DNA from: Escherichia coli
Lineage (GTDB): Bacteria; Pseudomonadota; Gammaproteobacteria; Enterobacterales; Enterobacteriaceae
Length of the DNA: 64,000 nucleotides
Assembly: GCF_030013205.1 (NCBI RefSeq)
Contig: NZ_CP122648.1
Reading direction: 5' to 3' (one strand)
The position numbers are program-made. Below are positions 48,001-54,000 of the stretch, one piece after another (positions within the stretch are counted from its first letter, which is position 1; every line of letters starts with the position of its first letter).

Positions 48001-51000
48001 GAAAAGTGCTTTAAGGCAGTGGCGCTGGCCTGGCACAAAACCAACAAAAAATGGTCGGCTGATTATGCCGCCCGTATTCTCGCCAGTATGGAAAACCATA
48101 TCTTCCCGGCGATTGGTCATCTGCCAGTTGCCACTCTTAAAACGCAGGATTTACTGCTTTGTTGCGGGTTATCGAGGATAAAGGCTTTCTGGAAGTCGCG
48201 TCCCGAACCCGGCAGCAACTCAGCAACATCATGCGCTATGCCGTTCAGCAGGGGCTTACCGAAAGCAATCCGGCGCAGCATCTGGATGGCGTTGTCGCCT
48301 CACCCGTAAAGAATCACTACCCCGCGTTACTGCTGGAGCGGTTGCCCGAACTGCTTGGCCGCATCGGTGACTATCAGCAGGGCCGGGAGTTAACACGGCT
48401 GGCGGTGGTGCTGACGTTGCACCTGTTTATCCGTTCCAGCGAACTGCGTTTCGCCCGCTGGAGCGAGATCGATTTCAGGCACAAAATCTGGACCATCCCC
48501 GCCACCCGCGAGGCAATCGACAAAGTACGGTTTTCGGGGCGTGGCGCAAAAATACGTACCCCGCATATCGTGCCGCTCTCCCGCCAGGCGATTGCCATTC
48601 TGAAACAGATACAGGAGCTTTCCGGCCATCTGGATCTGGTGTTTCCCGGTGATCATAACCCGTACAAGCCAATGAGTGAAAACACCACCAACCGGGCGCT
48701 ACGCCTGATGGGGTATGATACGAAAACTGAAATCTGCGGGCATGGACTCAGGGCGATGGCCTGTAGCGCCCTGGTGGAGTCGGAGCTGTGGTCACGCGAT
48801 ACGGTGGAGCGGCAAATGAGCCACCAGGAGCGTAACAGCGTGCGGGCAGCCTATGTGCATAAAGCGGAGCATCTGGAGGCCAGAAAGGCCATGATGCAGT
48901 GGTGGTCGGATTATCTGGATGTGTGCCGCGAGGGGTATGTTGCGCCGTACATTTATGCCCGGCAGCATAAGGCAGCCTGAATCAGAAATAACGGAAATCA
49001 TTAAAAATGTAAAAGCAGATCCTGATTGACCGGGATCTGCTTATTGTATTGAGAAGTATTACCATTTTTCTGTTATTATCAATCGGAAAGTATCTAAAAA
49101 TATTTGGCCCCAAATAATTTTGGTGAAAACCAATCAATAAACCATTTATCAATAGGTAAGTACCGGAAATTATTCCAGTAGAATATTTTCAGGCGATTGC
49201 CTATTAATAAATACATTATTGATAGATAAGTGCCTTCTGTGATTTGTCCGCAAATCACAGAAGATGAAAACCTATCAATACGGGATATTTTCACGGAAAT
49301 ACCAATTAATACTCCAGAATATCTCCTGACCATATACTCTGAAACCTGTAAGAACTGCATCAGATATTGAGAGACCATATAGATATAAGTCTGAAATTAT
49401 TTTGTTTCCAATGATTTCAGGCGAAAACCTATCAATGCATCTGTTTTCAATAGGCAGCCACCTTCCGTGATTAACATGTTAATCACGGAAGGTGAAAAGC
49501 TATCAATAATCGATATTTTCACGGAATTACCACTTAATACATCCCAAAAAATGCGCCATAAAATACCGGGCAATCTTTCCTGATACACATTATCACTGCA
49601 CCAGCTATACAGAGACAAAATAATCTGCACCAGCCCCTGTAAATCGGTTATTTGTGCCAGTGTCCCGCCGCTCTACCTGTTCAGGGTTGTGCCAGTTTCT
49701 GGCCCTTTGGTTTTCGGCCCTTTCCGGTCAGGCGCTGTTACCCTTATTGCCCCTTAACCTTTATGACCCTTTCCCTTTCTGACGCAACCAGTTTATTTTG
49801 AAATGCTCCATGACAGTCTGCACCAGACTGTATTTTCACCACAGGATAACGATCACAAAGTGCAAAAAAATAACATGAAGCACCAAAGATTGTTAATCTA
49901 TATGTAGCAGGTAATGATGTCAAAAACTGTCGCAGCATTTTTTATAAAATTATGAGACATTCTGTGGGCATATAATATATGTCACAAGATGCAGGAAAAC
50001 AAAGAGAGAGTTTTCAGATATAATCCTGCGTTAGAATTAATGTGATGCCCCGGTGAATTTACATTTTAAAATTTCCCTGTCCCGTAATATCGGTAAAAAC
50101 GATTGAAACACCAGCTATTAATCGGGAACGTCTCGAGTGATTACAGGGTAATCACTATAATATCCCGGCAAACTATATTGGTTAAGCAGGAGAATCTGAT
50201 CAGTTGATATTTATTCGTCATGCTGTAACGATATTTTCACAATATAAACCCGTTCGCCCCCTGCGCCAGATCCGGTACAGAGGGTACGATAAATCGCTGT
50301 CGTTACGCAGTAACGTACTATTTTGCGACATTCATGAATTCAGTCATTCCTCCCTCCAGCGGTAGCCGTACACCTGTTTCACCCAGCGACCGCGACCGTC
50401 GCCATGACCCAGATCCGTCGCCGTCAGCGCCAGTGACTCCTTTTCGCTGAATCCCTGCGCCAGTATCCAGGACTGTCGTATAACGGGGACGCCCGCCTTT
50501 GGTGCCAAATACCACTTTTAGCCGGGTTTCACCGCGGGAAATGGCTTTCAGCCACGTTTTCAGCGACTGTGAACTCTGTACCGCCTCCTGCGAACGCAGC
50601 CCCATCAGCCGCGCAATCTCCAGCGCTGCTGCCAGCCCTGCGTCCTGAGTACGGGCTTTCTCCATCACCTGCCTGCGTCCAGCCTGTCTCAGCACGGCCC
50701 GCAACGCTGCCATTTCGTTTTGCAACGTTCGTAAACCAATATCCAGCTCCAGCCGTTCCTCAATGTAGCATTCGATATGGCGAACCTTGATCTGCTCCAC
50801 CCGCTGGATCTGGATATTCAGCGCCCGTAAATGTTCACTGAACCGTTTTGTAATATGGATACGGTCATTCACCGTTTTGAAGCTGCCGCCCGCTTTCTTC
50901 GCCAGCGCCTTCATTTCACTGCTTAATTTACTCATGAATCCCTCTGCAACAAAAACAAACAGTCTCCGGCGTGTGCTTTTTGGCTGCGCCAGAACGATAC

Positions 51001-54000
51001 CTTTACGCCGGAGTGGTAGTTTGTTGAGGTTTAGGGAGTTTCAGGCTGTACGCAGTACAGACTGCCTGCGAAGCAGGAGTGTCTCCGGGGCTTCTTGCCC
51101 CCCTCGGTATCGATCTTTTTCTCCTTTACTCTTAGCTGACAGCGGCCCCAAAGGGCATGTCAGACGGCGGAAATATGGCGCAGGCCAGAACTGGCGCGGC
51201 TTGTGGCGGTAAGTTGTGCGGCGTCACTTTGCTTTTTCGCTGGCGCGACCAAAGTGACGCCTCGTCTGGTGCAGGGGGTAAACGTTACGTTTCTGGTGCA
51301 GGGTGACGGTCACGCGGCAGCAAAGCCTGACGGCAATGCAGGCCGCAGCCCGTCAATGTAAGGCGCTGGTTGTCAGCAGAAGATAAAACCCGGCAAAGCC
51401 AGAGTGTCAGCCCGTAAAGCCGGGTATCTGGTGCAGTGATGGTGTATATGTACGTCAGTCTCAGATGCAGGTATTTTTGCATCCCCGGCGTTTTCAGAGA
51501 TCAACGCCGGTAAAGGATGCCATGCTGGCGAAGCCAGGCGCTTCTTTCAGACGTGAAGCGACAAAGGGACTGCCCGGAGGCAGTTTGTTGCAGGCGGGAG
51601 ACTGCGCCATTATTTCTGGTGCAGGAAGGAAAAACTGTTTCCGGGTTTAAAAGATTGTTTGCTTACCTGGTGACGGAAAAACTGCCGCGCTTCGCTTGTC
51701 TTCTCCCGGCGCGCTGCCAGCAAAAGCAGGCAGCGCGCCGGGAGAGTCTGGTTTTACTGTAACAATGCGCCTGACGGTTCAGCCATCAGGATCGGCGTTT
51801 ATGCATGAGTCTTCCGGTACGGTTGCCCCGATCATCGATGTATCTGGACGGTCAGATAATTTCCGGTGATGTTTCCAGCGCATCCGCAATCAGTTTTTCG
51901 CCGCGCGGCCTGGAGCGGGTCAGCGCATTTGCCAGCGTGGAAGACGCCAGCCCGGCCCTGCGGGAAACCTCAGCCAGCGATGTTCCCTTTTTTCTCAGGC
52001 CCGCGATAATATCGGCGGGGTGCCAGTCGGGTTGCATCATGCTGGCCTCCCGTCGATAACCTGTATGCCGTCAGCAGTACATATCCAGCGTGGGGCGTTC
52101 AGATTGGCGGCAAAATACCAGACCAGTTCGCACAGCAGCCCGGTCAGCGTGGTTTCGGTTTCCGGCAGCAGCACGTGGCCGTTCAGTATCTGCGTCAGCG
52201 CCAGGCAGTAATCGCAGAGTGATCCTGCATCAGGCTCAAAACCGGGTGAAACATCGGGAAGATCATTCGTAATAAACCCGTCAATCAGATGTGGTGGGAT
52301 CGGCTCGTTCAGCGTGGGCCGCAACAGTGCAAGACAGGTATTAAGCCTGCCACAGAGCGCCGTTTTCAGCGCCGGATCGCAGCACTCGATGAGCGTTGTG
52401 GCAACGCGATCGCAGTACTCCGCCAGATCGGTGAAATCGGTAGCGGCACTAAAGGGAACAGCAAGTAAATTGCATTCAGAGGTGAGAGTAGTCGCCATAA
52501 GGCCGTCTACAGTGAGTGATAAATATTCCAGCCACTGGAGAGGCTAATCTCACGGGTGGTGGAACCGGACGGGGTTAGCCTTACCAGCCTCACTGACACT
52601 GGCGCGTCTTTCGACGCCCCCGCCCGATCCCGCCATTGAGATGAGACCGTGCGCGACACACAAATATTGTATCGTCAGTGAGGATCTTCAGGAGGCTAAT
52701 CCCGACGCCTGATTTTGCAGGCGCGGCGCAACAATACAATGTTCGGTAATTTTCAGCAAGAGGTTTAGCGGAAGCAGACGCACAGGAAAATACAATCACG
52801 CGATAAATATTAAATACAATTATATTTATATAAAATATATATTGAGCAATATGCAGACACTTTCCAGTAAATATCCTGTCAGTTAATTCGTCCCGTTGAT
52901 ATCAGTCAAAAAAATAAATGTAAAAAGAGCGTATTTCGTTTCATACAGTAACGTTATTTATCATTTTGTCCGGTGTCGCCAGCATCAGGCCAGATGAACC
53001 ATAAAAAAGGATATCAGCGATGAGCGGAAAACCGGCAGCACGTCAGGGCGATGCCACAATGAAAGGTGGCCCGATAGTCCAGGGGTCGGCAGGCGTGAGG
53101 ATTGGCGCGCCAACCGGCGTGGCCTGTTCAGTGTGCCCCGGCGGATTCACTTCCGGTAACCCGGTGAATCCGCTGCTCGGTGCAAAAGTACAGCCCGGCG
53201 AAACCGATTTCGCGCTGCCCGGCCCGTTACCGTTCGTGCTCTCCCGCACCTACAGCAGCTACCGGACGAAAACCCCTGCGCCCGTCGGTATCTTCGGTCC
53301 TGGCTGGAAAGCACCCTTTGATATCCGCTTACAGATACGCGATAACGAACTGATACTCAATGATAACGGTGGCAGAAGCATTCATTTTGAGCACCTGTTT
53401 CCCGGTGAGGATGGCTTCAGCCGCAGCGAATTATTCTGGCTGGTGCGCGGCGGCGTGGCGAAACTGAATGAAAGTCACCGTCTTGCCCCACTCTGGCAGG
53501 CTCTGCCGGAAGAACTCCGCATGAGTCCGCATATTTATCTGGCGACGAACAGTCCGCAGGGGCCGTGGTGGATACTCGGCTGGAGTGAGCGGGTACCGGG
53601 TGTGGATGAGGTGCTGCCTGCGCCATTGCCGCCGTACCGGGTGCTGACCGGCCTGGTGGACCGCTTCGGGCGTACCCTGACCTTCCGGCGTGAGGCAGTT
53701 GGCGAATTTACCGGGGAAATCACCGGCGTGACCGATGGCGCAGGCCGTCAGTTCCGCCTGGTGCTGACCACGCAGGCGCAGCGGGCGGAAGAGGCCCAGC
53801 AGCAGGCGGTTGCAGCCGGAGCAAAACGACCAGATATCCCGGTTTCATTGCCGGACTATACAGAATATGGCCGGGATAACGGCATCCGCCTGTCAGCGGT
53901 GTGGCTGACGCATGACCCGGAATACCCGGAGAATTTACCTGCCGCGCCACTGGTGCGCTACGACTGGACGCCACGCGGTGAACTGGCGGCGGTGTATGAC

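Follow-up and report, generated by a model that had tools for sequence, protein, structure and literature searches.

A conserved structured non-coding region with an EFASI RNA ahead of an Integrase_1 gene: putative leader RNA and candidate oriT of a decayed island in Escherichia coli

In SGI1, a 125-bp origin of transfer (oriT), rich in GC and in inverted repeats, lies upstream of mpsA. An essential RNA, sgm-sRNA, has its gene between the two; this RNA is cut from a 650- to 700-nt transcript that carries a GC-rich repeat, resembling a terminator, close to its 5' end (PMC6414798, PMC9299015). MpsA is described as acting with a separate protein, MpsB, that resembles a core-binding domain. MpsA-like proteins are recognized by the Pfam family PF12835, as the 'INT_DTR_like' signature (PMC10484663). 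Chromosomes of E. coli and Salmonella frequently carry MOB_M relaxases; 96% of these lie beside an integrase, and their oriT is taken to be the first large upstream intergenic region (bioRxiv 10.64898/2026.01.13.699239). Two Rfam RNAs are also relevant: EFASI, detected by RT-qPCR, has according to Rfam STAXI on its upstream side and integrase genes on its downstream side (PMC12370729), and STAXI is found near c4 RNAs (PMC2864571).

The window, a stretch of 64,000 nt from an E. coli chromosome, contains a 10.5-kb island at tRNA-Asn (attL 47536-47557, attR-like repeat 58022-58037). Within it, a segment of about 0.85 kb is a conserved non-coding control region on the minus strand, upstream of an Integrase_1 gene. 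We favour, with some confidence, the view that it represents a leader RNA together with a candidate oriT, left by a mobilizable island that has decayed; this function is inferred. Its elements and neighbours are as follows:

49583-49826, plus strand: three inverted CTGCACCAG copies (49596, 49625, 49818), found by motif search
50318-50935, minus strand: small tyrosine-recombinase-like gene (Phage_int_SAM_2 and Integrase_1), annotated as frameshifted in RefSeq
50936-50990, minus strand: spacer between EFASI and the ATG, the same across 80 loci
50991-51118, minus strand: EFASI RNA (Rfam RF02957)
51136-51163, minus strand: hairpin CUGACA...UGUCAG, from alignment A2
51217-51380, minus strand: conserved core, which has no Rfam entry
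51381-51483, minus strand: variable spacer between the core and the STAXI-like segment
51484-51640, minus strand: homologue of the stretch that bears STAXI in related loci
51682-51745, minus strand: long GC-rich stem-loop (arms 51745-51726 and 51721-51702) and its box
51786-51851, minus strand: 3' end of a Ner/SfsB-like HTH_35 gene remnant

The non-coding segment and its EFASI RNA

An earlier note on this DNA had described the segment as poor in ORFs, and this holds: ORFs within 50940-51800 reach at most 81 aa, apart from one of 141 aa that begins in the neighbouring gene, none has a Pfam match, and 50940-51785 contains no real gene. The flanks, which had been called AT-rich, are in fact GC-rich coding DNA (GC 0.51-0.62 at 50350-50950 and 51850-52600), AT-rich DNA being located farther out (approximately 49000-50200 and 52750-53050). 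A scan of 50800-52900 returned no promoter-like site. Over 865 nt, the minus strand folds at -345.5 kcal/mol, against -285.9 +/- 7.9 for shuffled sequences (z -7.59); for the plus strand, z is -3.98.

The Rfam covariance-model scan that had been proposed as a check identified EFASI over the full model (positions 1-133), on the minus strand only, with 100.8 bits (E 2e-21) for a gathering score of 51.2 bits. The suggestion of a structured non-coding RNA was partly right, but applies as a known family to the minus strand of 50991-51118 only. The two small hairpins reported there (cctgc-gaa-gcagg, 51065-51077, and ggggc-ttctt-gcccc, 51087-51101) do exist, and are two EFASI helices of the minus strand.

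EFASI is linked one-to-one with the Integrase_1 gene. It sits 55 nt upstream of the frameshifted gene in this E. coli chromosome, and 46 to 110 nt upstream, on the same strand, in all loci with enough upstream DNA. The association was found in 16 of 16 loci by Rfam and in 85 sources by nhmmer, and the loci in which EFASI precedes the gene, about 80 in number, come from many genera of Enterobacterales. In distant relatives of the protein (44% identity), a gap of approximately 0.9 kb separates a tRNA gene from the recombinase-like gene, and EFASI is absent. The full-length match, the Enterobacteriaceae host and the integrase-like gene directly downstream agree with the EFASI motif among the candidate RNAs of Weinberg et al. 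2017, as does the position of EFASI in relatives, a few hundred bases downstream of STAXI, with the Rfam description. However, in the Rfam description EFASI may be a small RNA that acts in trans, with a function not yet known, whereas here it is the fixed 5' neighbour of one gene family; the window copy, moreover, precedes a frameshifted gene.

A further difference, and what is new here, is a nine-pair helix that ties EFASI to sequence not covered by the Rfam model. The internal CUCCGGCGU (51013-51005, minus strand) pairs with ACGCCGGAG (50972-50964), the 3' strand of the helix, which lies beyond the model in the spacer ahead of the ATG (50935-50933). This spacer also contains a U-rich run (approximately 50962-50946) and a GAGGG Shine-Dalgarno sequence. 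Pairing is kept in 99.6% of 522 cells, both sides have changed at three of the nine pairs (55 cells), the score was reached by none of 500 shuffles, and the wobble pairs favour the minus strand. The helix crosses EFASI helix P1, and may represent a pseudoknot or an alternative fold.

Conserved elements upstream of EFASI

All conserved elements hold a single orientation relative to the downstream gene. A purine-rich AAGGAG is conserved just before EFASI, between it and the hairpin at 51136-51163, of which UCUGACA is nearly invariant. Compensatory changes, another check proposed earlier, were found in this hairpin, CUGACA/UGUCAG becoming CCGACA/UGUCGG in two loci (L009 and L014); its 3' half is missing in the group of locus L021.

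The conserved core is 72 to 88% identical in nucleotides to loci in Brenneria, Serratia, Citrobacter, Klebsiella, Tatumella and others, lacks codon periodicity, and has indels that break the frame. It holds an invariant 21-nt block, GGCUUUGCUGCCGCGUGACCG (51327-51307), two CUGCACCAG repeats (51301-51293 and 51274-51266) and a hairpin with compensatory pairs, GCGUCACUUU...AAAGUGACGC (51261-51220). Further CUGCACCAG copies are present in the variable spacer (51436-51428) and in the STAXI-like segment (51624-51616), and the CTGCACCAG copies downstream of the recombinase-like gene mirror those of the segment. Overall, CTGCRCCAG occurs 16 times in the window, for 1.08 copies expected. A 25-nt inverted repeat has its right arm in the variable spacer (51425-51449) and its left arm at 49583-49607. 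Next to the left repeat cluster is AT-rich DNA that contains two direct repeats of 131 nt. In other E. coli strains, a higA gene lies between the core and the stem-loop.

The STAXI-like segment was recognized by blastn to related loci (L036, L027, L035, L055 and pESI), and corresponds in place and strand to the STAXI (RF01728; Weinberg et al. 2010) of loci L036 (42 bits) and L065 (69 bits), STAXI being defined by a score of at least 40.5 bits and two or more tandem pseudoknot units. This motif is frequent but not obligatory upstream of EFASI, and the window gave no match at E<=10, below the Rfam threshold. One STAXI-like unit is visible by eye at approximately 51520-51600 (minus strand), as an ACUGCC-UCCG-GGCAGU hairpin followed by GCUUC...CUGAAAGAAGCGCC. 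The CUGAAAGAAGCGCC signature and a nearby c4 RNA are as in STAXI; in contrast, the defining two to three tandem pseudoknot units are lacking in the window.

The perfect 16-bp stem described previously is present (51703-51718 and 51729-51744), and extends to 20-nt arms with 95% complementarity (51702-51721 and 51726-51745). Directly 3' of it on the minus strand is a conserved box, AAGACAAGCGAAGCGCGGCAG (51702-51682). Other genera have 25 distinct versions of the stem-loop, with stems of 18 to 20 bp and a freely replaced inner sequence. Their pairs comprise 420 Watson-Crick, 31 G-U, 5 A-C and 11 others, and the preference for G-U over A-C indicates that the stem folds on the minus strand; with the EFASI covariance model, this bias argues for folding on one strand. 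The proposal that the stem is the terminator of the RNA does not stand: on the minus strand it comes about 40 nt after the stop codon that the Ner-like gene originally had, EFASI follows 585 nt further downstream, and neither strand has a conserved U-tract. An intrinsic terminator has its U-tract at once after the stem, where the minus strand has AAGACAAGCG. As to the T-rich stretch reported on the plus strand, it amounts to GTCTGGTTTTACTG, with four T's 6 nt from the stem, and a terminator scan flags only a sub-hairpin with a T-tail (51737-51752).

Candidate function and alternative explanations

The intact 294-aa orthologue of the downstream protein matches PF12835 (E 8.9e-60, 201 bits), the signature of the MOB_M / MpsA-type module, as well as PF12834 (E 7.8e-41). 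It has a full tyrosine-recombinase architecture, with an N-terminal SAM_2 domain and a catalytic domain whose RHR-Y residues are invariant. Homologues are rare on plasmids (50/72,556); the family is largely chromosomal, beside a separate integrase. Such an integrase is close by in the window, as a P4-type pseudogene (47617-48980), and adjoins the Integrase_1 gene in loci L065 and L087-L090. In most loci, an isrK/C4 RNA, orf153 and the Ner-like gene are found upstream on the same strand. In the window, none of the genes for the integrase, the relaxase-like protein and the Ner-like protein is intact, so this copy of the island is probably a relic.

How, then, might such a region work? Along the minus strand, from 5' to 3', come the cut-off Ner-like end, the 20-bp stem-loop with its box, the STAXI-like unit, the core, and EFASI with its nine-pair helix to the sequence just before the ribosome-binding site. 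Transcription would yield a long leader or precursor, either together with the C4-RNA-controlled orf153/Ner operon or just after it, and EFASI would then act on the expression or activity of the downstream protein. Counting against this reading are the absence of any promoter-like site from 50800-52900, of a STAXI match at Rfam thresholds from the window, and of EFASI from the distant relatives. One step further, the analogy with SGI1 would make the protein a relaxase, and would assign the origin of transfer of the island to the invariant, repeat-rich core. This last step is suggested by the order oriT, sgm-sRNA, mpsA in SGI1, together with PF12835 as an MpsA-type signature, the link between the protein and MpsA being the Pfam signature as quoted from PMC10484663.

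The likeness to the SGI1 module (Kiss et al. 2019; Nagy et al. 2021) is one of layout and Pfam signature. In both, a non-coding region of about 0.7 to 0.9 kb precedes a tyrosine-recombinase-like gene, with a conserved element, rich in GC and in inverted repeats, some 300 to 450 bp ahead of the gene. A structured RNA domain lies between this element and the gene, the far (5') end has a repeat that is GC-rich and terminator-like, and a separate integrase is present elsewhere in the island. Structural correlates of an oriT are found here as the invariant block, the inverted repeats and the GC-rich core, 280 to 445 bp upstream of the gene. However, MpsA needs MpsB, whereas the protein here has its own N-terminal domain and is followed by no mpsB-like ORF; SGI1 carries traN/G/H and targets trmE, whereas the target here is tRNA-Asn and the island has a C4-RNA/Ner module. 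The region also resembles the 'oriT_rM' families, themselves computational predictions (bioRxiv 10.64898/2026.01.13.699239), in its position: it is the first large stretch of intergenic DNA ahead of a gene of the tyrosine-recombinase-like kind, beside an integrase in an E. coli chromosomal island.

A more specific proposal, which we advance only tentatively, is that EFASI is the counterpart of the sgm-sRNA, an RNA that tyrosine-recombinase-type (MOB_M) relaxases would need to process their oriT, the 0.85-kb region combining RNA precursor and oriT. The oriT would then consist of the invariant block, the covarying hairpin and the CTGCRCCAG repeats as putative protein-binding sites. If true, this would cover widespread small tRNA-integrated mobilizable islands in Enterobacterales, which carry Rhs, T6SS and defence cargo.

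Two other explanations start from the repeats and the protein. Because the latter has its own SAM_2 domain where MpsA relies on a separate MpsB, it could be an ordinary recombinase. It may be a genuine site-specific recombinase (multimer resolvase or island excision helper) unrelated to conjugation, the region being an mRNA leader plus DNA target, with EFASI as a cis-regulatory element and the CTGCRCCAG repeats as putative recombinase binding sites. We consider this rather unlikely, although the full recombinase architecture speaks for it, and so do the inverted repeat arrays on both sides of the gene, a layout that recurs in about 30 loci, and only in protein clades with at least approximately 65% identity; the inverted copies beyond the gene are left unexplained by the leader and oriT model. 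Small recombinases with direct-repeat arrays do exist, for example Rsd/crs of Salmonella virulence plasmids. Against it, the inverted junction expected of an invertible DNA switch was absent from all 401 E. coli genomes, PF12835 is the literature signature for MpsA-type relaxases (PMC10484663), and the chromosomal location beside a separate integrase is like that of MOB_M (bioRxiv 10.64898/2026.01.13.699239). An origin of replication of a P4-like excised replicon, in which the repeats would be iterons by AT-rich DNA and the hairpins origin structure rather than RNA, appears improbable. The two repeat clusters, the left one beside AT-rich DNA and its 131-nt direct repeats, do recall P4, whose ori and crr form two clusters. 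Moreover, Photorhabdus relatives carry a C4 RNA, an Ash-family gene and a primase-helicase (Zn_Ribbon_Prim, Toprim_3 and AAA_25 domains) directly after the Integrase_1 gene. However, the loci with the primase-helicase lack CTGCRCCAG, while those with the repeats have orf153 instead; the G-U bias and the EFASI model argue that one of the strands folds, and no nucleotide similarity to P4 was found in the phage collection.

The earlier note's own version, a structured RNA of the plus strand ending at the 16-bp stem as intrinsic terminator, is very hard to maintain. The plus strand beats its shuffles too, and the short T run and the flagged sub-hairpin are on its side, but this run is weak and lacks conservation among loci, the only match to EFASI is on the minus strand, the wobble pairs of both the stem and the nine-pair helix favour that strand, and every conserved element is oriented in one way with respect to the downstream gene. 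Least credible of all is a decayed protein-coding gene, the other possibility that had been raised, even though RefSeq annotates a 52-aa hypothetical ORF at 51203-51361 (plus strand) and the neighbouring genes are pseudogenes. In 50936-51785, variability by codon phase is flat (0.212, 0.183 and 0.182), indels are mostly of 1, 2 or 4 nt and break the frame, and ORFs of homologous loci match at the nucleotide level only, their translated matches falling on both strands and in mixed frames. No ORF has a Pfam match, and the higA gene of the variants leaves no trace in the segment of the window. Decay of a gene is the correct explanation for the right-hand 65 nt alone (51786-51851), which are not intergenic: translations of the window and of an intact 84-aa orthologue (Pfam HTH_35, E 5e-32) show that they are the cut-off end of the Ner-like gene, between a premature stop at 51854-51852 and the original one at 51788-51786.

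EFASI and its partner gene

The earlier note had seen in 50940-51800 a hairpin-dense segment without ORFs, either a structured non-coding RNA or a decayed gene. The observation is real, and the central piece of the region is a known RNA on the opposite strand: EFASI (RF02957) lies at 50991-51118 on the minus strand, with 100.8 bits in Rfam against a gathering score of 51.2, and its identity is near certain. The two small hairpins noticed at 51065-51077 and 51087-51101 exist, and both are EFASI helices. A structured RNA is thus present, but it is one already described, and on the other strand. 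The remainder of the region is conserved non-coding DNA in several parts.

Features of the region and of the surrounding island (window coordinates)
47617-48980, plus strand: P4-type integrase gene, frameshifted
After the integrase gene and before the recombinase-like gene: AT-rich repeats
50318-50935, minus strand: small tyrosine-recombinase-like (Integrase_1) gene, frameshifted
51217-51380, minus strand: core, 72-88% nucleotide identity across genera, with the invariant block GGCUUUGCUGCCGCGUGACCG and CUGCRCCAG copies
51484-51640, minus strand: STAXI-like segment, homologous to a stretch scoring as STAXI in the related loci L036 and L065
51702-51745, minus strand: long stem-loop, 25 distinct versions
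51852-52040, minus strand: Ner/SfsB-like HTH_35 gene, next after the region, with a premature stop at codon 63
After the Ner-like gene, minus strand: 153-aa ORF
52552-52737, minus strand: C4 antisense RNA, 62 bits, over threshold
Just upstream of the C4 RNA, minus strand: isrK-like (45.5 bits) and c4-a1b1 (43.8 bits) elements, just under threshold
Last in island order: Rhs toxin gene

The region is indeed without a credible gene: its ORFs are of 81 aa at most, except one begun inside the neighbouring gene, and there are no Pfam matches. Codon-phase variability (0.212, 0.183 and 0.182) indicates that a coding signal is absent, indels are mostly of 1, 2 or 4 nt, and homologous loci give translated matches on either strand and in mixed frames, again with no coding signal found. 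A decayed gene is therefore rejected for the non-coding zone, and holds only at its edge: the original Ner-like frame continues past its premature stop to 51786, so that the last 65 nt of the supposedly non-coding zone are a gene remnant. The AT-rich flanks described earlier were an error, as the directly adjoining DNA on both sides is GC-rich coding sequence. Compared with dinucleotide shuffles, the segment is far more stably folded, with a z-score of -7.59 on the minus strand versus -3.98 on the plus strand. A promoter scan of 50800-52900 found none, and an Rfam scan of the window for further families gave only chance-level microRNA-type matches, on the long stem.

The comparison covered 79 loci with a gene for a relative of the recombinase-like protein, one genome per species, plus several obtained by other routes. 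In every locus with enough upstream DNA, EFASI precedes the start codon of the gene by 46-110 nt and has the same orientation (Rfam, 16 of 16 loci; nhmmer, 85 sources), in genera that include Escherichia, Salmonella, Citrobacter, Klebsiella, Serratia, Brenneria, Lonsdalea, Pectobacterium, Xenorhabdus and Photorhabdus. Rfam describes EFASI as often 3' of STAXI and 5' of integrase genes, and assigns it no function; RT-qPCR has shown the RNA to be present in vesicles from a Shiga-toxin E. coli strain (PMC12370729). The two motifs have been orphans since 2010 and 2017, placed until now just "near integrases". What is new is that EFASI is tied, as a constant 5' neighbour, to a single protein family, which carries the Pfam signature used for MpsA-type relaxases.

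An exhaustive HMMER search shows the family to be small, with 755 clusters at E<=0.001 among 1.84 billion proteins, and on plasmids it is rare (50/72,556). Distant relatives of the protein (44% identity), in loci L095 (8945-10001) and L096 (515-1571), lie about 860 nt 3' of a tRNA gene adjoining ffh, and the gap of about 0.9 kb between tRNA and recombinase-like gene has no EFASI in these two loci. Phage and plasmid nucleotide searches returned one mislabelled Salmonella fragment, the other Salmonella records being chromosomal pieces or pESI plasmids, and when viral contigs were scanned with the invariant 18-mer, one match was genuine, adjoining tRNAs, and three were due to chance. Matches to part of the core appear in more than 140 Salmonella plasmid records, of which the one examined is pESI-type. 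In L005, the Salmonella Infantis pESI-type plasmid pN55391 (5880-6320, minus strand), the match also covers the STAXI-like segment, and an insertion sequence interrupts the remnant 15 nt into EFASI; the recombinase-like gene is absent.

Conserved elements around EFASI

One conserved helix and three conserved upstream elements can now be added to EFASI. The helix lies outside the Rfam model: CUCCGGCGU (51013-51005), a conserved "single-stranded" segment of EFASI, pairs with ACGCCGGAG (50972-50964) in the pre-gene spacer. Across 58 distinct sequences, 99.6% of cells are paired, and both-sided changes occur at three of the nine pairs (55 cells); slid controls pair in just 30-60% of cells, and none of 500 shuffles reached the covariation score. 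Because it crosses the closing helix of EFASI, the new helix must be either a pseudoknot or an alternative fold.

Further upstream, a hairpin of the core, GCGUCACUUU...AAAGUGACGC, shows compensatory changes. The STAXI-like segment has no Rfam match to STAXI in the window; STAXI itself was noted near c4 RNAs in 2010 (PMC2864571). In the long stem-loop, the perfect 16-bp stem reported earlier at 51703-51744 is in place and extends to 20-nt arms with 95% complementarity. The T-run 3' of it on the plus strand is present but weak (GTCTGGTTTTACTG). The base CUCCCG/CGGGAG is retained while the inner sequence is freely replaced, and the pairs comprise 420 Watson-Crick, 31 G-U and only 5 A-C, a G-U to A-C imbalance which argues for selection of the stem on the minus strand. 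A conserved box, AAGRCAAGCGAAGCGCGGCAG, directly follows the stem-loop.

The spot between core and stem-loop seems to accept insertions. A higA antitoxin gene, with no annotated higB, is found there in the related loci L002 (6779-7078) and L003 (6810-7112), and Lonsdalea has an HTH_3/HTH_31 gene in the place where some E. coli islands have higA. No higA/higB remnant was found in the variable middle of the region.

Repeats and a possible origin of transfer

CTGCRCCAG occurs 16 times in the window, with 1.08 copies expected. Four of these stand in sense orientation 5' of the recombinase-like gene (51266-51624, minus strand), and three downstream in opposite orientation, at 49596, 49625 and 49818 (49596-49826, plus strand); a 25-nt inverted repeat pairs 49583-49607 with 51425-51449. 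About 30 loci share this inverted arrangement, with as many as six copies on the downstream side; their proteins are at least about 65% identical, and more distant protein clades lack it. Such an arrangement resembles DNA repeats bound by a protein. The AT-rich DNA that separates the integrase gene from the left CTGCACCAG cluster contains two 131-nt direct repeats, 73% alike (49182-49540), each with a long palindrome (CTTCTGTGATTTGTCCGCAAATCACAGAAG; a 36-nt perfect palindrome, CACCTTCCGTGATTAACATGTTAATCACGGAAGGTG); these could be an operator or an origin-like structure.

Several readings of these elements were considered. The repeats could delimit an invertible DNA switch, which we exclude because none of 401 E. 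coli genomes carries an inverted junction. They could be arm sites of the P4-type integrase; this was rejected because of their distance, at least 0.6 kb past the far end of the int gene and more than 2 kb from attL. On the RNA side, a conserved terminator after the new helix is ruled out since the U-run 3' of it is confined to the E. coli group, and a leader peptide starting from the AGGAG 5' of EFASI since that same group has no start codon.

We favor another proposal, in which the region would provide both a leader or precursor RNA and a candidate origin of transfer for a relaxase-like gene. The protein has the Pfam domains PF12834 and PF12835, the latter being the signature, in one classification scheme, of MpsA, the tyrosine-recombinase-type relaxase of Salmonella genomic island 1, SGI1 (PMC10484663). 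In SGI1, oriT is a 125-bp, GC-rich and repeat-rich segment a few hundred bases 5' of mpsA, and the stretch from oriT to mpsA encodes an essential small RNA, processed out of a transcript of 650-700 nt; close to its 5' end, that transcript has a GC-rich, terminator-like repeat (PMC6414798, PMC9299015). The order of parts is the same in the window: stem-loop, conserved repeat-rich core, structured RNA, gene. However, MpsA acts with a separate MpsB, whereas the window's protein has its own N-terminal domain instead, and the link is an analogy via a shared Pfam signature, not demonstrated homology. According to a 2026 preprint, relaxases of this type, MOB_M, are the most frequent kind in the chromosomes of E. 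coli and Salmonella; almost all adjoin an integrase, and their oriT is taken as the first large upstream intergenic region (bioRxiv 10.64898/2026.01.13.699239). On balance, we think that the region is probably transcribed as a minus-strand leader; the oriT role of the region and the relaxase role of the protein, both argued by analogy, are a tentative suggestion that we hold to be somewhat doubtful. Combined, the parts lead to a concrete hypothesis open to test: small genomic islands may be mobilised with the help of an RNA, as has been shown for SGI1.

The island and its relatives

The window is E. coli chromosome, with identical copies in porcine ETEC strains. The island spans 10.5 kb, from the 3' end of tRNA-Asn (47482-47557) to 58022-58037, where 16 nt of that end recur as a direct repeat; the window has two more tRNA-Asn genes, at 43250 and 45658. 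Of the island's genes, three are broken, two by frameshifts (P4-type integrase, Integrase_1) and the Ner-like one by its premature stop. The window's copy is a relic, and the island is probably immobile in this strain. The C4 RNA heads the orf153/Ner-like operon, as in most related loci: it is a P1/P4-type immunity RNA within a non-phage island, and the isrK-like and c4-a1b1 elements are its likely targets.

Related islands occupy tRNA-Asn in 415 of 5,426 complete E. coli genomes (about 8%), some with higA between core and stem-loop and some with type VI secretion cargo. Overall, these islands are small integrative elements whose control and replication genes are P4-like and whose cargo varies: Rhs toxins, type VI secretion genes, or defence systems such as DarTG. 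In those of Lonsdalea and Enterobacter the cargo is DarTG, an ATPase/peptidase pair, or large unknown proteins. In Photorhabdus, STAXI and EFASI precede the Integrase_1 gene, followed by a C4 RNA, an Ash-family gene and a primase-helicase. In the Photorhabdus asymbiotica locus (L065, 5077-7720), the Ash-family gene after the Integrase_1 gene overlaps the C4 RNA and is followed by a 693-aa primase-helicase, an order that resembles the left operon of the satellite phage P4.
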